IMG/VR virus record: IMGVR_UViG_3300045988_140317
Location: 1-40,101 of that record
Source: a virus
DNA: 40,101 bases
Reading direction: 5' to 3' (one strand)
Shown: positions 32,824 through 35,949 of the stretch, in pieces
Layout: each line of letters opens with the position of its first letter
Numbering within the stretch: position 1 is the first letter of the stretch
Notes under the pieces: generated by a model
The model's input: only the letters and a program-made list of their open reading frames with translations
What the model was told of the DNA's origin: nothing
The model's database searches: none
Made by a program: the position numbers and the translations under genes

Positions 32824-32852
32824 AAATAAAAAAAGCCCGAAAAAATCGGGCT
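32824..32852 (-). terminator. Minus-direction intrinsic terminator at the left edge of the island
   Basis: AGCCCGA / TCGGGCT stem followed by a T run on the minus strand. Confidence 0.7.
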
Positions 32853-32884
32853 CAAAAAATTTTTAAAAAAATTATAAAAAAGTA

Positions 32885-32913
32885 TTGACAAAATAAAATC
32901 CTTGGATTATAAT
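32885..32913 (+). promoter_or_regulatory. P1: consensus sigma-A promoter TTGACA-17-TATAAT
   Basis: Read directly: -35 at 32885-32890 and -10 at 32908-32913. Confidence 0.8.
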
Positions 32914-32920
32914 AGACTTG

Positions 32921-32940
32921 TAAGGTTGAGATAGACCTTA
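32921..32940. promoter_or_regulatory. Palindromic operator candidate TAAGGT-N8-ACCTTA at about +1 of P1
   Basis: Perfect 6-bp arms. The identical element occurs downstream of P2. Confidence 0.55.
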
Positions 32941-32981
32941 TAAAATCCCCCTCAAAGTAAGGGTTGAAAGGGGGTGAGAAT

Positions 32982-33098
32982 GTGAAAAGCCGCAAGGGCA
33001 AAAGAAAAAGCCTTGACTTTTCAAAAGTAATCAAGCTAGTGACTGCAATCGCTAGATTGATAAAAATACTTATTGAAATAATCAAGGCTCTTTCTTAA
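32982..33098 (+). CDS. 38-aa basic/amphipathic peptide (type I toxin-like candidate)
   Basis: GTG start 7 nt after the GGGGG of SD AAGGGGGTGA. Sequence MKSRKGKRKSLDFSKVIKLVTAIARLIKILIEIIKALS. The SD can pair with the upstream CCCCCT (32947-32952). Confidence 0.45.
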   Translation: MKSRKGKRKSLDFSKVIKLVTAIARLIKILIEIIKALS

Positions 33099-33106
33099 CA
33101 TTCAAT

Positions 33107-33142
33107 GGCAAGTAGATGATTAACATCTATTTGCCTTCCCTT
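33107..33142 (+). terminator. 12-bp hairpin with a weak T tract after the 38-aa ORF (leaky terminator)
   Basis: GGCAAGTAGATG / CATCTATTTGCC followed by TTCCCTT. Confidence 0.45.
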
Positions 33143-33148
33143 ACAATT

Positions 33149-33177
33149 ATTATAGCAAAGAAGGGGTCAAAATGCAA
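33149..33177 (-). promoter_or_regulatory. Antisense promoter TTGCAT-17-(TGc)TATAAT facing the 38-aa ORF
   Basis: Read on the minus strand. The -35 overlaps the RHH start codon. Transcription would run antisense through 32982-33098 to the terminator at 32824-32852. Confidence 0.5.
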
Positions 33178-33342
33178 GAAACAAAACGACCACGAGGAAG
33201 ACCGCCAACTGGTTTAAAACGTAACAAAAAATTAACAATCAACTTTACACAAGAAGAAATAGACTTCTTAAAAGCTAAAGCAAAAGAAAATAAAAAAAGT
33301 CTTCCTAATTTTATTTTAGAAAGTGTCAAACAACTTTTTTAA
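33172..33342 (+). CDS. Ribbon-helix-helix (CopG/Arc/MetJ-like) DNA-binding protein, 56 aa
   Basis: Not in the track. SD GAAGGGG. Sequence MQETKRPRGRPPTGLKRNKKLTINFTQEEIDFLKAKAKENKKSLPNFILESVKQLF, with a beta-strand then two helices. Confidence 0.65.
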   Translation: MQETKRPRGRPPTGLKRNKKLTINFTQEEIDFLKAKAKENKKSLPNFILESVKQLF

Positions 33343-33361
33343 AAAAATTTAAAAAAAGATA

Positions 33362-33390
33362 TTGACAAAATAAAATCCTTGGATTATAAT
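33362..33390 (+). promoter_or_regulatory. P2: consensus sigma-A promoter TTGACA-17-TATAAT
   Basis: -35 at 33362-33367 and -10 at 33385-33390. Confidence 0.8.
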
Positions 33391-33395
33391 AGACT

Positions 33396-33419
33396 TGTAA
33401 GGTTGAGATAGACCTTACA
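33396..33419. promoter_or_regulatory. Operator candidate copy 2 (TGTAAGGT-N8-ACCTTACA)
   Basis: 8-bp perfect arms at about +1 of P2. Confidence 0.55.
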
Positions 33420-33548
33420 AAATAAAAAAACTTGCTACATCCTCCCCGACCAAAGTTTGGATGTAACAAGTCCCAACAAACACTCAATAGAGCGCTGTAT
33501 ACATAGTATACCATAGCGTACCTGTTGAGTCAACTCAGGTACGTTTTT
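33397..33548 (+). ncRNA. About 150-nt structured leader or sRNA transcribed from P2
   Basis: Four hairpins: 33396-33419; 33431-33470 with a CCTCCCC loop junction; 33497-33522; and the terminator at 33518-33548. No ORF. Confidence 0.5.
33518..33548 (+). terminator. Intrinsic terminator/attenuator upstream of the island operon
   Basis: GTACCTG...CAGGTAC stem followed by GTTTTT. The downstream CGTACCT (33550-33556) can pair with the 3' arm instead. Confidence 0.55.
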
Positions 33549-33580
33549 CCGTACCTCGCAAAAAAGAAAGAAGGTATATT

Positions 33581-34018: not shown

Positions 34019-34066
34019 TTGGGCGGAACACTCCGCCCCCAAAAAATAAAAAAAGAGGTAAACATC

Positions 34067-34234
34067 ATGAAAAAATCAATTATTATCATTACAGCAATCA
34101 TCATCACAATTACTATCGCATTTGGTTTTTATCGACTTGAAAAGAAAAATCAAGAACTACAACAGCAAATAAACCAGCTATACGAGTACAACGAAAAATT
34201 AGATTATCACGTTTCGGGATTGCTTGAAAAGTAA
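34067..34234 (+). CDS. Island protein 2 (55 aa, N-terminal TM helix + coiled coil)
   Basis: Trimmed to the ATG with SD AAGAGGT. Sequence MKKSIIIITAIIITITIAFGFY... Confidence 0.55.
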   Translation: MKKSIIIITAIIITITIAFGFYRLEKKNQELQQQINQLYEYNEKLDYHVSGLLEK

Positions 34235-34255
34235 AAGATGCTAAATAAAATACGA

Positions 34256-34280
34256 CCAGAAAGCCTAGCAGGCTTTCTGG
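34256..34280 (+). other. 11-bp hairpin between island genes 2 and 3 (partial terminator or processing site)
   Basis: CCAGAAAGCCT-agc-AGGCTTTCTGG followed by TTATT. Confidence 0.45.
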
Positions 34281-34301
34281 TTATTGAAAGGAAAAATCAA
34301 A

Positions 34302-34520
34302 ATGAAATTGAACGAGCTTAAAGCAAAGACTTTAGAAAACCAAAAAGAACGCTTGACTTATTTACTTGACATGTATAAGTATTATCGCAATGTTATGTAC
34401 TCGTTTAAAACGATGTGCAAAACAGTTCTGTTAGCAAATGCTTATATACAAGACATAGAAAACGAACTAATAACAGACTACAACTATACAGAAGAAGATT
34501 TATTTGAATTGTTCGTATAA
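34302..34520 (+). CDS. Island protein 3 (72 aa, unknown)
   Basis: Trimmed to the ATG preceded by GAAAGGAAAA. Confidence 0.5.
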   Translation: MKLNELKAKTLENQKERLTYLLDMYKYYRNVMYSFKTMCKTVLLANAYIQDIENELITDYNYTEEDLFELFV

Positions 34521-34536
34521 GAAAGAGGTAAGAAAC

Positions 34537-34701
34537 ATGTACTACATCATGGACTATGTAGGCAACCCTACAATCATAATTCAAACAATCAAAACGGCAA
34601 CTGAAAAACCTAAAACTAGACAAGGTCAAGCAGCCTTGCGAATGCTTAAAAAAAGACATTTTAAAAATTTCAGAAATCAATTAAATTTACCCCCAAAATA
34701 G
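34537..34701 (+). CDS. Island protein 4 (54 aa, basic)
   Basis: Trimmed to the ATG with SD AAAGAGGTAA. Confidence 0.5.
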   Translation: MYYIMDYVGNPTIIIQTIKTATEKPKTRQGQAALRMLKKRHFKNFRNQLNLPPK

Positions 34702-34717
34702 AAAGAGGTACAATACC

Positions 34718-35053
34718 ATGAAAACAATCCAAGAAATAAATGAAATTTATGGTACTAGCTACAAAAACGCCGAACAATATCTTGACAAGGTAATAGGCGC
34801 GCTATCTGAATTTGAAGAATTTGATGATTATTACAATGCATTAGAAGCAAGCGGCGACCAACCTATGCTACAAACATTTTTAGCCTACTATGCAAAAGGC
34901 AAAATAGAAATATCCGAATTTGCTTCCGAAATTTTAAAAGAAATGGATTTGTACAACGAAAGCGACAGCTTAGAAACAATGATAATTAAAATTGCTTGGA
35001 ACATAGCAGATGCAAACGATAAGATAATGGATTTTGTATACAACAGAAAATAA
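34718..35053 (+). CDS. Island protein 5 (111 aa, strongly acidic)
   Basis: SD AAAGAGGTA. By my count 22 D/E versus 10 K/R. Confidence 0.65.
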   Translation: MKTIQEINEIYGTSYKNAEQYLDKVIGALSEFEEFDDYYNALEASGDQPMLQTFLAYYAKGKIEISEFASEILKEMDLYNESDSLETMIIKIAWNIADANDKIMDFVYNRK

Positions 35054-35068
35054 AGGAGATATGACAAA

Positions 35069-35692
35069 ATGGCTACAAGATTAGAAATTGCAAAGAATAA
35101 ATTGGAACGATTGGAAAAAGAACTTTATCAAGCGCAAGATGCCGCTTCTGCTCATCTATCATTAGCGAATGGTCAGCCAATGAACGATAAACGAAACGGC
35201 CCCGCCTTTTTCAAAAAACAAGACAAATTAGAAGATAAGATTTTTAGGATTATGGACGAAATAAAGAAACAGAAAGAGCGCATAGAACACTTAGAAGATA
35301 TTGAAAGCTATAAAGTCGAGGGCTTGAACAGAAACGGAATCGGGCTCAAATTGACTATCGACAACATTCCACGAATCAAAGAAGAAATTGAAAAATACGA
35401 AAAAGGAGAAATTTCCTACACTGCTGCTACTATTAGAAAATACAAGAAGAGAGTAGCAGAGTTAGAAGCAGCTGCAGCTCAAATTGAAAGTACAGAAATT
35501 TCACAAAAAGCTCAAGCGCTGATTGATTCGGGTAAAGTCACACAATGGAAGAAACACCCTACAGTATATTTTGTAAAAGGCTATCGCAAAATTGCCGTAA
35601 TCCTTGATAGTGACGGACATTTTAAATTATCGGCTAGGTACTATCCGCACGATGACAAAATAAAGCAAGAAATTTTAGAACTGATTAAATAA
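35069..35692 (+). CDS. Island protein 6 (207 aa, coiled coil N-terminus; possibly DUF3560-like)
   Basis: SD AAAGGAG. The LANGQPMNDKRNG segment after a helical N-terminus is reminiscent of DUF3560 proteins of mobile elements (low certainty). Confidence 0.6.
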   Translation: MATRLEIAKNKLERLEKELYQAQDAASAHLSLANGQPMNDKRNGPAFFKKQDKLEDKIFRIMDEIKKQKERIEHLEDIESYKVEGLNRNGIGLKLTIDNIPRIKEEIEKYEKGEISYTAATIRKYKKRVAELEAAAAQIESTEISQKAQALIDSGKVTQWKKHPTVYFVKGYRKIAVILDSDGHFKLSARYYPHDDKIKQEILELIK

Positions 35693-35737
35693 ACTTTTTA
35701 AGTTTTTTATAAATATATATTCTCATTGCATTCTTCA

Positions 35738-35746
35738 TGTTATAAT
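35738..35746 (+). promoter_or_regulatory. Extended -10 promoter (TGTTATAAT) for the 52-aa peptide gene
   Basis: Read directly, 20 nt upstream of the ATG and followed by SD GAAAGGAG. Confidence 0.45.
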
Positions 35747-35765
35747 AATTGAAAGGAGCTTCATT

Positions 35766-35924
35766 ATGTGGAACTGGTTAATCTTATTTTTATTATTATT
35801 TATTTCCTTGTTTTACTTTTCAAATATCATTATAAAAATTGTTATCGGGTTTATATTATTTGTTCTTGCTATTGCAATAATCTGCCTAATAATTGATTTT
35901 CATAATGACCCAAATAAAAACTAA
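35766..35924 (+). CDS. 52-aa two-TM hydrophobic peptide
   Basis: Not in the track. Sequence MWNWLILFLLLFISLFYFSNIIIKIVIGFILFVLAIAIICLIIDFHNDPNKN. SD GAAAGGAG. Confidence 0.5.
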   Translation: MWNWLILFLLLFISLFYFSNIIIKIVIGFILFVLAIAIICLIIDFHNDPNKN

Positions 35925-35949
35925 GAGCCTTATCGGCTCTTTTATTTTG
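35924..35949. terminator. Bidirectional terminator at the right edge of the island
   Basis: AGAGCC / GGCTCT stem with T-rich runs on both strands. It overlaps the stop of 35942-36379. Confidence 0.6.

Follow-up and report, generated by a model that had tools for sequence, protein, structure and literature searches.

A putative plasmid-copy-control-like accessory cassette in temperate streptococcal phages

The viral DNA record IMGVR_UViG_3300045988_140317, analysed here over all of its 40,101 nucleotides (nt) and referred to as the window, represents the complete genome of a temperate Streptococcus phage whose nearest relative is the Streptococcus anginosus prophage Javan64 (98% identity over the aligned parts). 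The majority of its genes lie on the minus strand, among them terS (31931-32269), terL and those for tRNA-Cys, portal, Clp protease, capsid, tail and lysis proteins, while the integrase and repressor-side genes are on the plus strand; early genes are also part of this order. A plus-strand block with the HNH/cos/terS genes on one side and a RinA/Alt-like gene on the other, hereafter the island, has a G+C content of 0.329 against 0.378 for the phage. One promoter, P1, precedes the genes for a 38-amino-acid (aa) peptide and a 56-aa ribbon-helix-helix (RHH) protein, and a second, P2, precedes a series of short cargo genes. We describe the regulatory elements of this island, their conservation in related loci (labelled L002 to L048 where they need to be told apart) and the cargo, and argue that the island is probably a portable, doubly self-limited accessory cassette of the moron type, carried by temperate streptococcal phages and governed by negative feedback that recalls plasmid copy control.

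The P2 leader and its predicted countertranscript

The P2 transcript starts with a 185-nt leader that combines a stem-loop complementary to a convergent countertranscript RNA (ctRNA), a preemptor, an intrinsic terminator and a segment complementary to the Shine-Dalgarno sequence (anti-SD; Table 1). Judged from its sequence, the leader is a pT181-type countertranscript attenuator; we regard it as the main regulatory device of the island, and it was overlooked in the initial annotation of this DNA. An Rfam scan gave a sub-threshold match to RF00242 (ctRNA_pT181) at 33416-33509 on the minus strand (44.9 bits, E=6e-5 to 3e-4), and five relatives likewise have RF00242 matches antisense to the leader, at 42-50 bits, as compared to 105.6 bits for pT181 itself. 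The match is reciprocal, in that a covariance model built from the nine phage ctRNA copies alone (R1) recovers the pT181 ctRNA in its correct place (42 bits, E=1e-5); in the window, R1 finds one copy, at 79 bits. The ctRNA folds into two hairpins with a U-tail (z=-4.9), and what is predicted opposite the 5' leader is an antisense RNA gene with its own promoter, two stem-loops and an intrinsic terminator, as in pT181-type systems. In the target stem-loop of the leader, 5 of the 7 stem pairs show compensatory changes and none is broken, and the 16-nt loop is invariant (nine loci or copies).

Folded alone, the leader (33397-33590, z=-6.8) forms the 5' hairpin, the target stem-loop and the antiterminator, in which, by minimum-free-energy folding of the leader as well as of the nascent RNA, the preemptor is paired to 33522-33530. 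The Shine-Dalgarno sequence and the AUG are free in this "on" fold. When the ctRNA-covered part is removed or blocked, the terminator (33516-33548) forms, and in this "off" fold both the Shine-Dalgarno sequence and the AUG are paired. In silico, therefore, the preemptor and terminator structures are mutually exclusive, with the preemptor lying inside the region complementary to the ctRNA, as the pT181 type demands. The preemptor duplex of the window has a free energy of -16.7 versus -8.0 in shuffles, only 6 of 2000 of which are as good; over the set of leaders for which duplex energies were computed, the duplex is equalled by no more than 20 of 2000 shuffles in 8 of 9 (p ≤ 0.01).

The same design recurs with different sequences. 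In all eleven leaders, part of the region covered by the ctRNA is base-paired to the 5' arm of the terminator when the nascent RNA is folded, with pairing sequences that vary by locus (e.g., ACUCAAUAG/CUGUUGAGU, UUACUAUCUA/UAGAUAGUAA and CUUAACUA/UAGUUAAG for preemptor and terminator arm). The terminator arms carry compensatory changes across loci, and in L024 one position is compensated three ways, by changes in the preemptor and in both of these arms. Altogether, the ctRNA, preemptor, terminator and anti-SD covary in more than ten related loci. No pairs were counted from the MAFFT alignment of the leaders, which mis-registers the outer stems.

Two relatives, Javan214 (L002 4606-4700) and Streptococcus suis strain 2256 (L004 5165-5260), share the layout of the leader and have different target loops, and R1 finds neither; there are, therefore, at least three specificity classes of ctRNA. 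The invariant ctRNA loop, together with a sub-threshold RF00242 match, was also encountered in two Firmicutes phages of lower G+C content, in one case before a Bro-N antirepressor gene that has an RHH gene just upstream (L011 2076-2280, minus strand), and in the other before a tyrosine integrase gene (L010 3732-3936, plus strand). Its presence before an antirepressor and an integrase gene points to the RNA module as a general regulatory cassette. Among the matches of the loop motif in viral contigs, 20 of 33 were judged to be due to chance, most of them at one conserved position in a family of contigs with higher G+C content and a few isolated.

Promoters, regulators and the P1 unit

P1 and P2 lie in the two copies of a repeat, and what had been described of it earlier, a length of about 88 bp (87 nt by our count), a 58-nt identical core (32883-32940), a perfect promoter in each copy and a palindrome after each promoter, is all present. 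The two promoters are the only perfect TTGACA-17-TATAAT arrangements in the window, against 0.02 expected from shuffles, and the palindrome TAAGGT-N8-ACCTTA occurs at 32921-32940 and 33398-33417, where 0.07 copies would be expected.

The 56-aa protein encoded between the repeat copies was recognised from the outset as an RHH protein, an assignment that holds at the profile level. In Pfam, its DUF6364 and NikA-like matches remain below the cutoff (23.2 vs 27.3 bits); its relatives match NikA-like at 5e-10 and RHH_1 at 1.5e-6, and 7 of the 10 matches listed in a PDB profile search are RHH proteins (AvtR, ParG, ORF56, NikA, 56B, MazE7 and a CopG-family regulator). Searches for homologues gave sparse results because the protein is short.

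The initial annotation took the TAAGGT-N8-ACCTTA palindrome, which begins right at the predicted +1 of both the P1 and the P2 transcript, for the operator of this protein, a role that the comparison between loci does not bear out. The palindrome is identical in L039 and near-identical in L036, both of which have, in place of the RHH protein, an unrelated 61-70-aa regulator with a spacer palindrome of its own, and it is absent from P2 of the RHH loci L002 and L017. In the S. suis loci L047 and L048 the hairpin at +1 reads GTAAGCT-N8-AGCTTAC although the β-strand of the RHH protein is the same as in the window (KKLTINFT), and L004 has the hairpin of L047/L048, yet both its RHH strand and its spacer are different. 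Indeed, the stem of the +1 hairpin covaries among loci independently of the type of regulator. A different inverted repeat, AATCC-TT-GGATT (AATCCTTGGATT), lies in the spacer of both promoters, abuts both -10 boxes and is found nowhere else in the window. Next to TATAAT it is kept identical in L047/L048, which have the same β-strand, and is changed where the β-strand changes, so that it covaries with the β-strand of the protein. Spacer palindrome, +1 hairpin and regulator type thus dissociate four ways across loci. Because the spacer repeat tracks the RHH protein and the +1 palindrome does not, we consider the former its likely operator and the latter probably a 5' RNA hairpin. Stem-loops at the 5' end are known to stabilise mRNAs in Gram-positive bacteria, and the +1 hairpin would probably do the same.

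RNA transcribed from P1 has a strong secondary structure (z=-8.1), in which the strong Shine-Dalgarno sequence of its 38-aa open reading frame (ORF) is paired with an upstream C-run. The length of the ORF, a strong GGAGGTGA-type Shine-Dalgarno sequence and the architecture of the peptide are kept in six loci at 26-49% identity; the close relatives are too alike for a synonymous/non-synonymous test. The peptide matches no toxin or other family in Pfam, PHROGs or NCBIfam. Facing it is an antisense promoter, missed in the initial annotation, whose arrangement is conserved in every RHH-type locus examined (L002, L004, L006, L017 and L047), with a 17-18-nt spacer and usually an extended TGn -10 box, and the hairpin with which its transcript would begin has counterparts in L002, L004, L006, L017, L036 and L039. 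In sequence, the peptide gene and its facing promoter resemble a type I toxin-antitoxin arrangement.

In some relatives (L039, L024, L036 and L012/L015) the place of this unit is taken by an alternative head module, comprising a hydrophobic peptide of 43-52 aa with a basic tail and a basic regulator of 61-75 aa without family match, and having its own palindromes in the promoter spacer (e.g., CATAGTATTAATACTATG). L048 carries this module in tandem (2040-2690), upstream of the RHH module. In L015, a ROOL RNA (2771-3327, 246 bits) and a Bacilli-1 RNA (3537-3601), both on the minus strand, which is that of the island, lie directly upstream of the regulator gene, where the small-peptide gene would be.

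Cargo genes, borders and relatives

The nine short plus-strand ORFs reported earlier (38, 56, 145, 55, 72, 54, 111, 207 and 52 aa) are all present, each with a Shine-Dalgarno sequence, and, as had been stated, none can be assigned a core phage function; the cargo matches nothing of known function. For 25 cargo proteins from seven loci, no known function emerged from Pfam, PHROGs, NCBIfam and PADLOC, where the matches were to DUF739, a few unknown PHROGs and, marginally, LmuB. In sequence and profile searches of the PDB, nothing was found for the 145-, 207- and 111-aa proteins. The first of these also has no Pfam or NCBIfam match, and its AlphaFold2 (AF2) model is poor (predicted local distance difference test score, pLDDT, of 60) and was left out of the fold search; the 72-aa protein has no family match in Pfam, PHROGs or NCBIfam. 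The 207-aa protein belongs to a family with 127 homologues in mobile elements of Firmicutes, whose gene is the first after a Cro-like helix-turn-helix (HTH) gene in prophages of Ligilactobacillus salivarius; its model matched no solved structure by fold or sequence, and BFVD returned just one uncharacterised viral protein. The cargo had been called partly very acidic, which is true of the 111-aa and 72-aa proteins and not of the rest. No anti-defence gene appeared among the matches from Pfam, PHROGs, NCBIfam, PDB and Foldseek, dedicated anti-defence hidden Markov model sets not being part of the search, and no gene behind the leader matches a Rep initiator (Pfam, NCBIfam, PHROG), as would be typical of a pT181-type locus.

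The 52-aa peptide at the distal end is very hydrophobic (grand average of hydropathy 1.66), has its own promoter and is conserved in this position in the window, Javan64, L005 and the "satellite" Javan208. Within the array, a GC hairpin followed by an A-rich junction (34016-34079) recurs at cassette boundaries in L005 and L024; this element and the perfect hairpin that separates the second and third cargo genes may mark the limits of cassettes or serve in the processing or stability of RNA.

Table 1. Features of the island and its flanks, with positions in the window
Feature	Position	Strand	Remarks
cos-like region	32270-32478		Between HNH and terS; two AAATGTGCGTT repeats and C7/G6 runs
HNH gene	32479-32784		Pfam HNH, E=9e-14; adjoins island on the left
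Left intrinsic terminator	32833-32853, T-run to 32823	-	GAGCCCGAttttttCGGGCTT then TTTTTATTTT
Repeat copy 1	32860-32946	+	87 nt; contains P1; 93% identical to copy 2
Promoter P1	32885-32913	+	Perfect TTGACA-17-TATAAT
Candidate RHH operator O1	32897-32908		AATCC-TT-GGATT; abuts P1 -10 box
Hairpin of P1 transcript	32920-32941	+	Operator of the initial annotation; begins at predicted +1; forms in minimum-free-energy fold
Hairpin CCCCCU...AGGGGG	32947-32974	+	Pairs Shine-Dalgarno of small ORF; terminator-like on minus strand
38-aa ORF	32982-33098	+	GTG start; Lys/Arg-rich N-terminus, then amphipathic/hydrophobic helix; candidate type I toxin-like peptide
12-bp hairpin after small ORF	33107-33135	+	No T-run; would be 5' hairpin of antisense transcript
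Antisense promoter (predicted)	33149-33177	-	TTGCAT-17-TATAAT; -35 box overlaps RHH start codon; faces small ORF
RHH regulator, 56 aa	33172-33342	+	Profile-level matches
Repeat copy 2	33337-33423	+	87 nt; contains P2
Promoter P2	33362-33390	+	Perfect TTGACA-17-TATAAT
Candidate RHH operator O2	33374-33385		AATCC-TT-GGATT; abuts P2 -10 box
5' hairpin of P2 transcript	33397-33418	+	
ctRNA gene (predicted)	33416-33503	-	About 80 nt; two stem-loops, the second its own intrinsic terminator
Target stem-loop of leader	33430-33471	+	Loop UCCCCGACCAAAGUUU
Preemptor (antiterminator 5' strand)	33482-33490	+	ACUCAAUAG; inside ctRNA-covered region
ctRNA promoter (predicted)	33505-33533	-	TTGACT-17-(TGg)TATACT; -10 at 33505-33510; -35 box in attenuator hairpin loop; kept in relatives
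Attenuator	33516-33548	+	Terminator hairpin GCGUACCUG/CAGGUACGU and U-run; 33 nt upstream of first cargo start codon
Anti-SD/Shine-Dalgarno element	33551-33577	+	Anti-SD GUACCUC 33551-33557; Shine-Dalgarno GAAGGUA 33570-33576
Cargo 1, 145 aa	33581-34018	+	20 homologues, mostly S. suis, all annotated hypothetical
Cargo 2, 55 aa	34067-34234	+	N-terminal transmembrane helix, then coiled coil
Perfect 12-bp hairpin	34255-34281		Between cargo genes 2 and 3
Cargo 3, 72 aa	34302-34520	+	Acidic, isoelectric point (pI) 4.8
Cargo 4, 54 aa	34537-34701	+	Basic
Cargo 5, 111 aa	34718-35053	+	Acidic, pI 4.2
Cargo 6, 207 aa	35069-35692	+	Helical hairpins and small β domain; AF2 pLDDT 92
Extended -10 promoter	35738-35746	+	TGtTATAAT
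52-aa peptide	35766-35924	+	
Right terminator, bidirectional	35923-35941		Common to island and convergent RinA/Alt-like gene
RinA/Alt-like gene, 145 aa	35942-36379		Convergent with island

The island was first described as a block bounded by terminators on both sides. The right one serves the island as stated; the left one is oriented for minus-strand RNA only and, from its sequence, would insulate the HNH and late genes from antisense or read-through RNA leaving the island, not end the island's own transcripts. The broader picture, an insulated and autonomous unit on the plus strand that has two consensus promoters and a small regulator of the RHH type, is supported. The convergent gene on the right had been named a late activator, a label backed by weak matches (RinA, E=1e-3; Alt-like, E=2e-3); it also matches phrog_3511, of unknown function (E=8e-19).

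That the slot would prove variable among relatives was borne out by a comparison of synteny, which shows differences of whole cassettes: 1) Javan64 is without 34121-35580, 2) in L005 the 145-aa gene, the first cassette, is replaced by two others and the 207-aa gene is missing, and 3) L039 and L024 keep P1, P2 and the leader and have the segment with peptide and RHH genes exchanged for another peptide-plus-regulator pair, at breakpoints that coincide with the duplicated promoter. The cassette was encountered in more than ten phage or prophage loci of several Streptococcus species. It adjoins HNH/cos in the window, L006, L017 and Javan214, and the S. suis copies are placed at the prophage end, with the host junction on one side and the lysin and holin genes on the other, which makes it a portable unit. 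By analogy with lambda, the cos-proximal side is probably the first-injected end; an explanation of the island's location by the DNA end that enters first is not general, given the S. suis copies beside the lysin gene. A blastn search of the control region against 72,556 plasmids gave no match. With its own promoters and terminator, a content that varies among close relatives and a composition unlike that of the phage, the island has the hallmarks of a moron.

In one S. suis locus, a gene with a PBECR2/PBECR3 nuclease domain stands between the cassette and the lysin gene (L047 4686-5063, minus strand). The deposited records of the "satellite prophages" Javan208/209 (L003) begin inside the cassette, at the RHH start codon, which suggests that the boundary of these records was mis-set.

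Proposed mechanism, known relatives and competing readings

In the mechanism we propose, the RHH protein would bind the spacer palindrome and thereby repress both P1 and P2, while the ctRNA would act on what is transcribed from P2. In its absence, the preemptor would pair with the 5' arm of the terminator, allowing read-through into the cargo with a free Shine-Dalgarno sequence; once bound, it would sequester the preemptor, so that the terminator forms, and in any RNA that still reads through, the Shine-Dalgarno sequence and the AUG would be paired. Neither RHH protein nor ctRNA is present in a naive cell, which would thus experience a burst of expression, followed by a low, clamped level that would drop per genome copy as the phage replicates. 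The most plausible role of the cargo is early host interaction or anti-defence, or else lysogenic conversion; early host takeover with anti-defence and lysogenic conversion are each compatible with the data. Anti-defence is no more than a possibility.

Several observations weigh against the reading as a doubly self-limited cassette. Every promoter is a prediction, as are the ctRNA and the antisense RNA, and the RF00242 score is below the gathering threshold of 56 bits. Of eleven full-length leaders, 6 favour the terminator fold at equilibrium even without ctRNA, so that the switch must be kinetic or may be mostly off. The preemptor duplex of L006 falls short of significance (178 of 2000 shuffles do as well), and a cruder count of paired bases in the 5' arm of the terminator failed to separate real leaders from shuffles, for which reason duplex energies were used instead. 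The operator assignment builds on a handful of loci, with L017 and L004 showing no clear spacer palindrome, and the searches assign no function to the cargo.

Antisense-RNA attenuators of the pT181/pIP501 type are textbook devices of plasmid copy-number control. The closest parallel is the repC attenuator of pT181, which likewise has a two-stem-loop antisense RNA opposite the 5' leader and a terminator just upstream of the start codon, with ctRNA binding deciding between preemptor and terminator (in the island, by prediction); the 3' stem-loop of the ctRNA, its loop (CAAACUUUGGUC.GGG) and its tail UUUUUAUUUUGU are nearly identical. In contrast, pT181 has the 5' arm of its target stem-loop as preemptor and the island a separate segment downstream of that stem-loop; the island, with its sub-threshold Rfam score, resides in a phage and not in a rolling-circle plasmid, controls phage cargo instead of Rep and has a protein repressor in addition. 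A combination of RHH repressor and antisense RNA is found in phage P22, whose immI region has a strong promoter, a gene for an Arc/Mnt RHH repressor in first position, the sar antisense RNA against the ant junction and a transient burst after infection. L011, with the same ctRNA loop and its RHH gene before a Bro-N antirepressor, resembles this order; the island differs from immI in that sar acts on translation and has no attenuator, the sequences are unrelated, and the island's cargo is a variable multi-gene array.

Among plasmids, the inc18 members pIP501, pAMbeta1 and pSM19035 combine a small repressor at the sense promoter, whose gene has its own upstream promoter, with convergent sense and antisense promoters and premature termination in the leader by the antisense RNAIII (PMC4981023). 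Unlike CopR, which does not regulate pI, the RHH protein of the island shares operator and promoter with its target and is probably autoregulated, and the island differs further in a ctRNA of the pT181 sequence type and in targets that are not replication genes. Plasmid pMV158 has a small RHH autorepressor, CopG, upstream of the regulated gene, an antisense RNA, RNAII, against the intervening region, and an unrepressed burst on entry into a naive cell (PMC5717011, PMC4485353). Its single-promoter order is exactly that of L006 and L047, while in the window the promoter is duplicated, and RNAII blocks translation, whereas the island would act mainly through transcription termination together with a block of the Shine-Dalgarno sequence. 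Aca14 of the acr-aca loci is, likewise, a small RHH regulator whose inverted repeat overlaps the -10 box of its own promoter and of a neighbouring promoter, with small genes of unknown or anti-defence function downstream (PMC13551039); the island is without a known acr gene, has its regulator upstream and not last, and adds a layer of RNA feedback. The P1 unit, finally, recalls the prophage systems bsrG/SR4 and yonT/SR6 in its small membrane-type peptide ORF, occluded Shine-Dalgarno sequence, convergent antisense promoter and polycistronic setting (PMC3834814, PMC5848175), and departs from them in a peptide with a long basic N-terminus and no family match and in an antisense transcript that is predicted.

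The island can also be read in other ways. That the island is a lysogenic-conversion moron, whose low, copy-number-buffered expression in the prophage benefits the lysogen (by superinfection exclusion or membrane or physiological effects) and whose burst on entry is incidental, is somewhat unlikely, but would fit its autonomy and deviating G+C content, the S. suis copy in the classical conversion slot between lysin gene and host junction, the two membrane peptides, of which the distal one has its own promoter, and negative feedback as a means to steady, low expression. No match to known exclusion or defence proteins was found, and perfect consensus promoters under two repressing layers are more typical of circuits that burst and then shut off; this reading and that of a doubly self-limited cassette are, however, not mutually exclusive. 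The initial annotation preferred an anti-defence operon of the acr-aca type, with an RHH protein that would bind the +1 palindrome at both promoters and small proteins that would inhibit host immunity. The layout of strong promoter, small autorepressor and variable small ORFs agrees with this, as do the partly acidic "dark matter" cargo, the position next to cos in four loci, the 207-aa family gene behind a Cro-like HTH gene in Ligilactobacillus and the precedent of an RHH-type Aca, Aca14, that controls two operons (PMC13551039). Yet the +1 palindrome is decoupled from the RHH protein, the regulator stands upstream under its own promoter instead of at the operon end, the S. suis cassette is at the prophage end beside the lysin gene and away from cos, and neither sequence, profile nor fold searches relate the cargo to a solved Acr or to any other known structure. 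With no cargo protein matching a known anti-defence or defence family, the resemblance is one of analogy only, and we regard this reading as unlikely.

It is also doubtful that the core of the island is a type I toxin-antitoxin addiction system, formed by the 38-aa peptide and the antisense RNA and stabilising the prophage, with RHH protein, ctRNA and cargo as passengers. Such systems are known from polycistronic prophage mRNAs, e.g., yonT/SR6 (PMC5848175) and bsrG/SR4 (PMC3834814), and the conserved peptide architecture, the sequestered Shine-Dalgarno sequence, the conserved convergent antisense promoter and the different transmembrane peptide with basic tail in the alternative modules would be in line with one. 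On the other hand, the peptide matches no toxin family, relatives have a weak antisense terminator or none, and a separate ctRNA attenuator and the turnover of the cargo would be left unexplained. An inert control region left behind by a rolling-circle plasmid that had integrated, or motifs brought together by chance, in either case functionless now, might be suspected from a pT181-like ctRNA with no Rep gene behind it; the recurrence over more than ten loci, in conserved positions, of intact promoters, covarying RNA pairings and open ORFs, and the failure of blastn to detect similarity to any plasmid record, make this extremely improbable.

While the single parts are thus familiar, our literature search found no description of a pT181/pIP501-type attenuator in a phage, nor of one heading a hypervariable gene array, and the use of the RNA module in phages in this position appears to be undescribed. 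Together with the RHH protein or an alternative small regulator, it stands in many prophages of streptococci at the head of a hypervariable series of unknown genes. If the proposed mechanism is true, phages reuse a circuit that senses gene dosage, the island is a compact natural expression cassette of the burst-then-shutoff type, and the conserved loop and leader could serve, like aca genes, as a "guilt-by-regulation" search key for accessory and anti-defence cargo in Gram-positive phages.

A bolder and quite improbable extension is that RHH protein and ctRNA act in trans as a plasmid-like "incompatibility" between phages, by which a resident prophage or satellite having the same operator and the invariant ctRNA loop would silence the early accessory island of an incoming relative, and that the same circuit senses the copy number of its own genome, telling lysogeny from lytic replication. 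In other Firmicutes phages, the silenced gene would then be the antirepressor or integrase behind the same loop. For plasmids, pre-existing CopG is known to block the establishment of the cognate plasmid (PMC5717011).

Three further features lie in the vicinity of the island or in relatives. Beside the RinA/Alt-like gene, a 190-aa protein encoded by a short tyrosine-recombinase gene (36751-37323, minus strand) consists of a Phage_integrase catalytic domain alone (E=6e-24); its gene is distinct from that of the full-length integrase (10185-11345) and also flanks the island in Javan64, L005, L006 and Javan214. The tRNA-Cys (GCA) gene of the window (29831-29900, minus strand) lies between the terL and portal genes, and the late region of another relative holds a GOLLD RNA with two tRNAs (L006 807-1197, minus strand).

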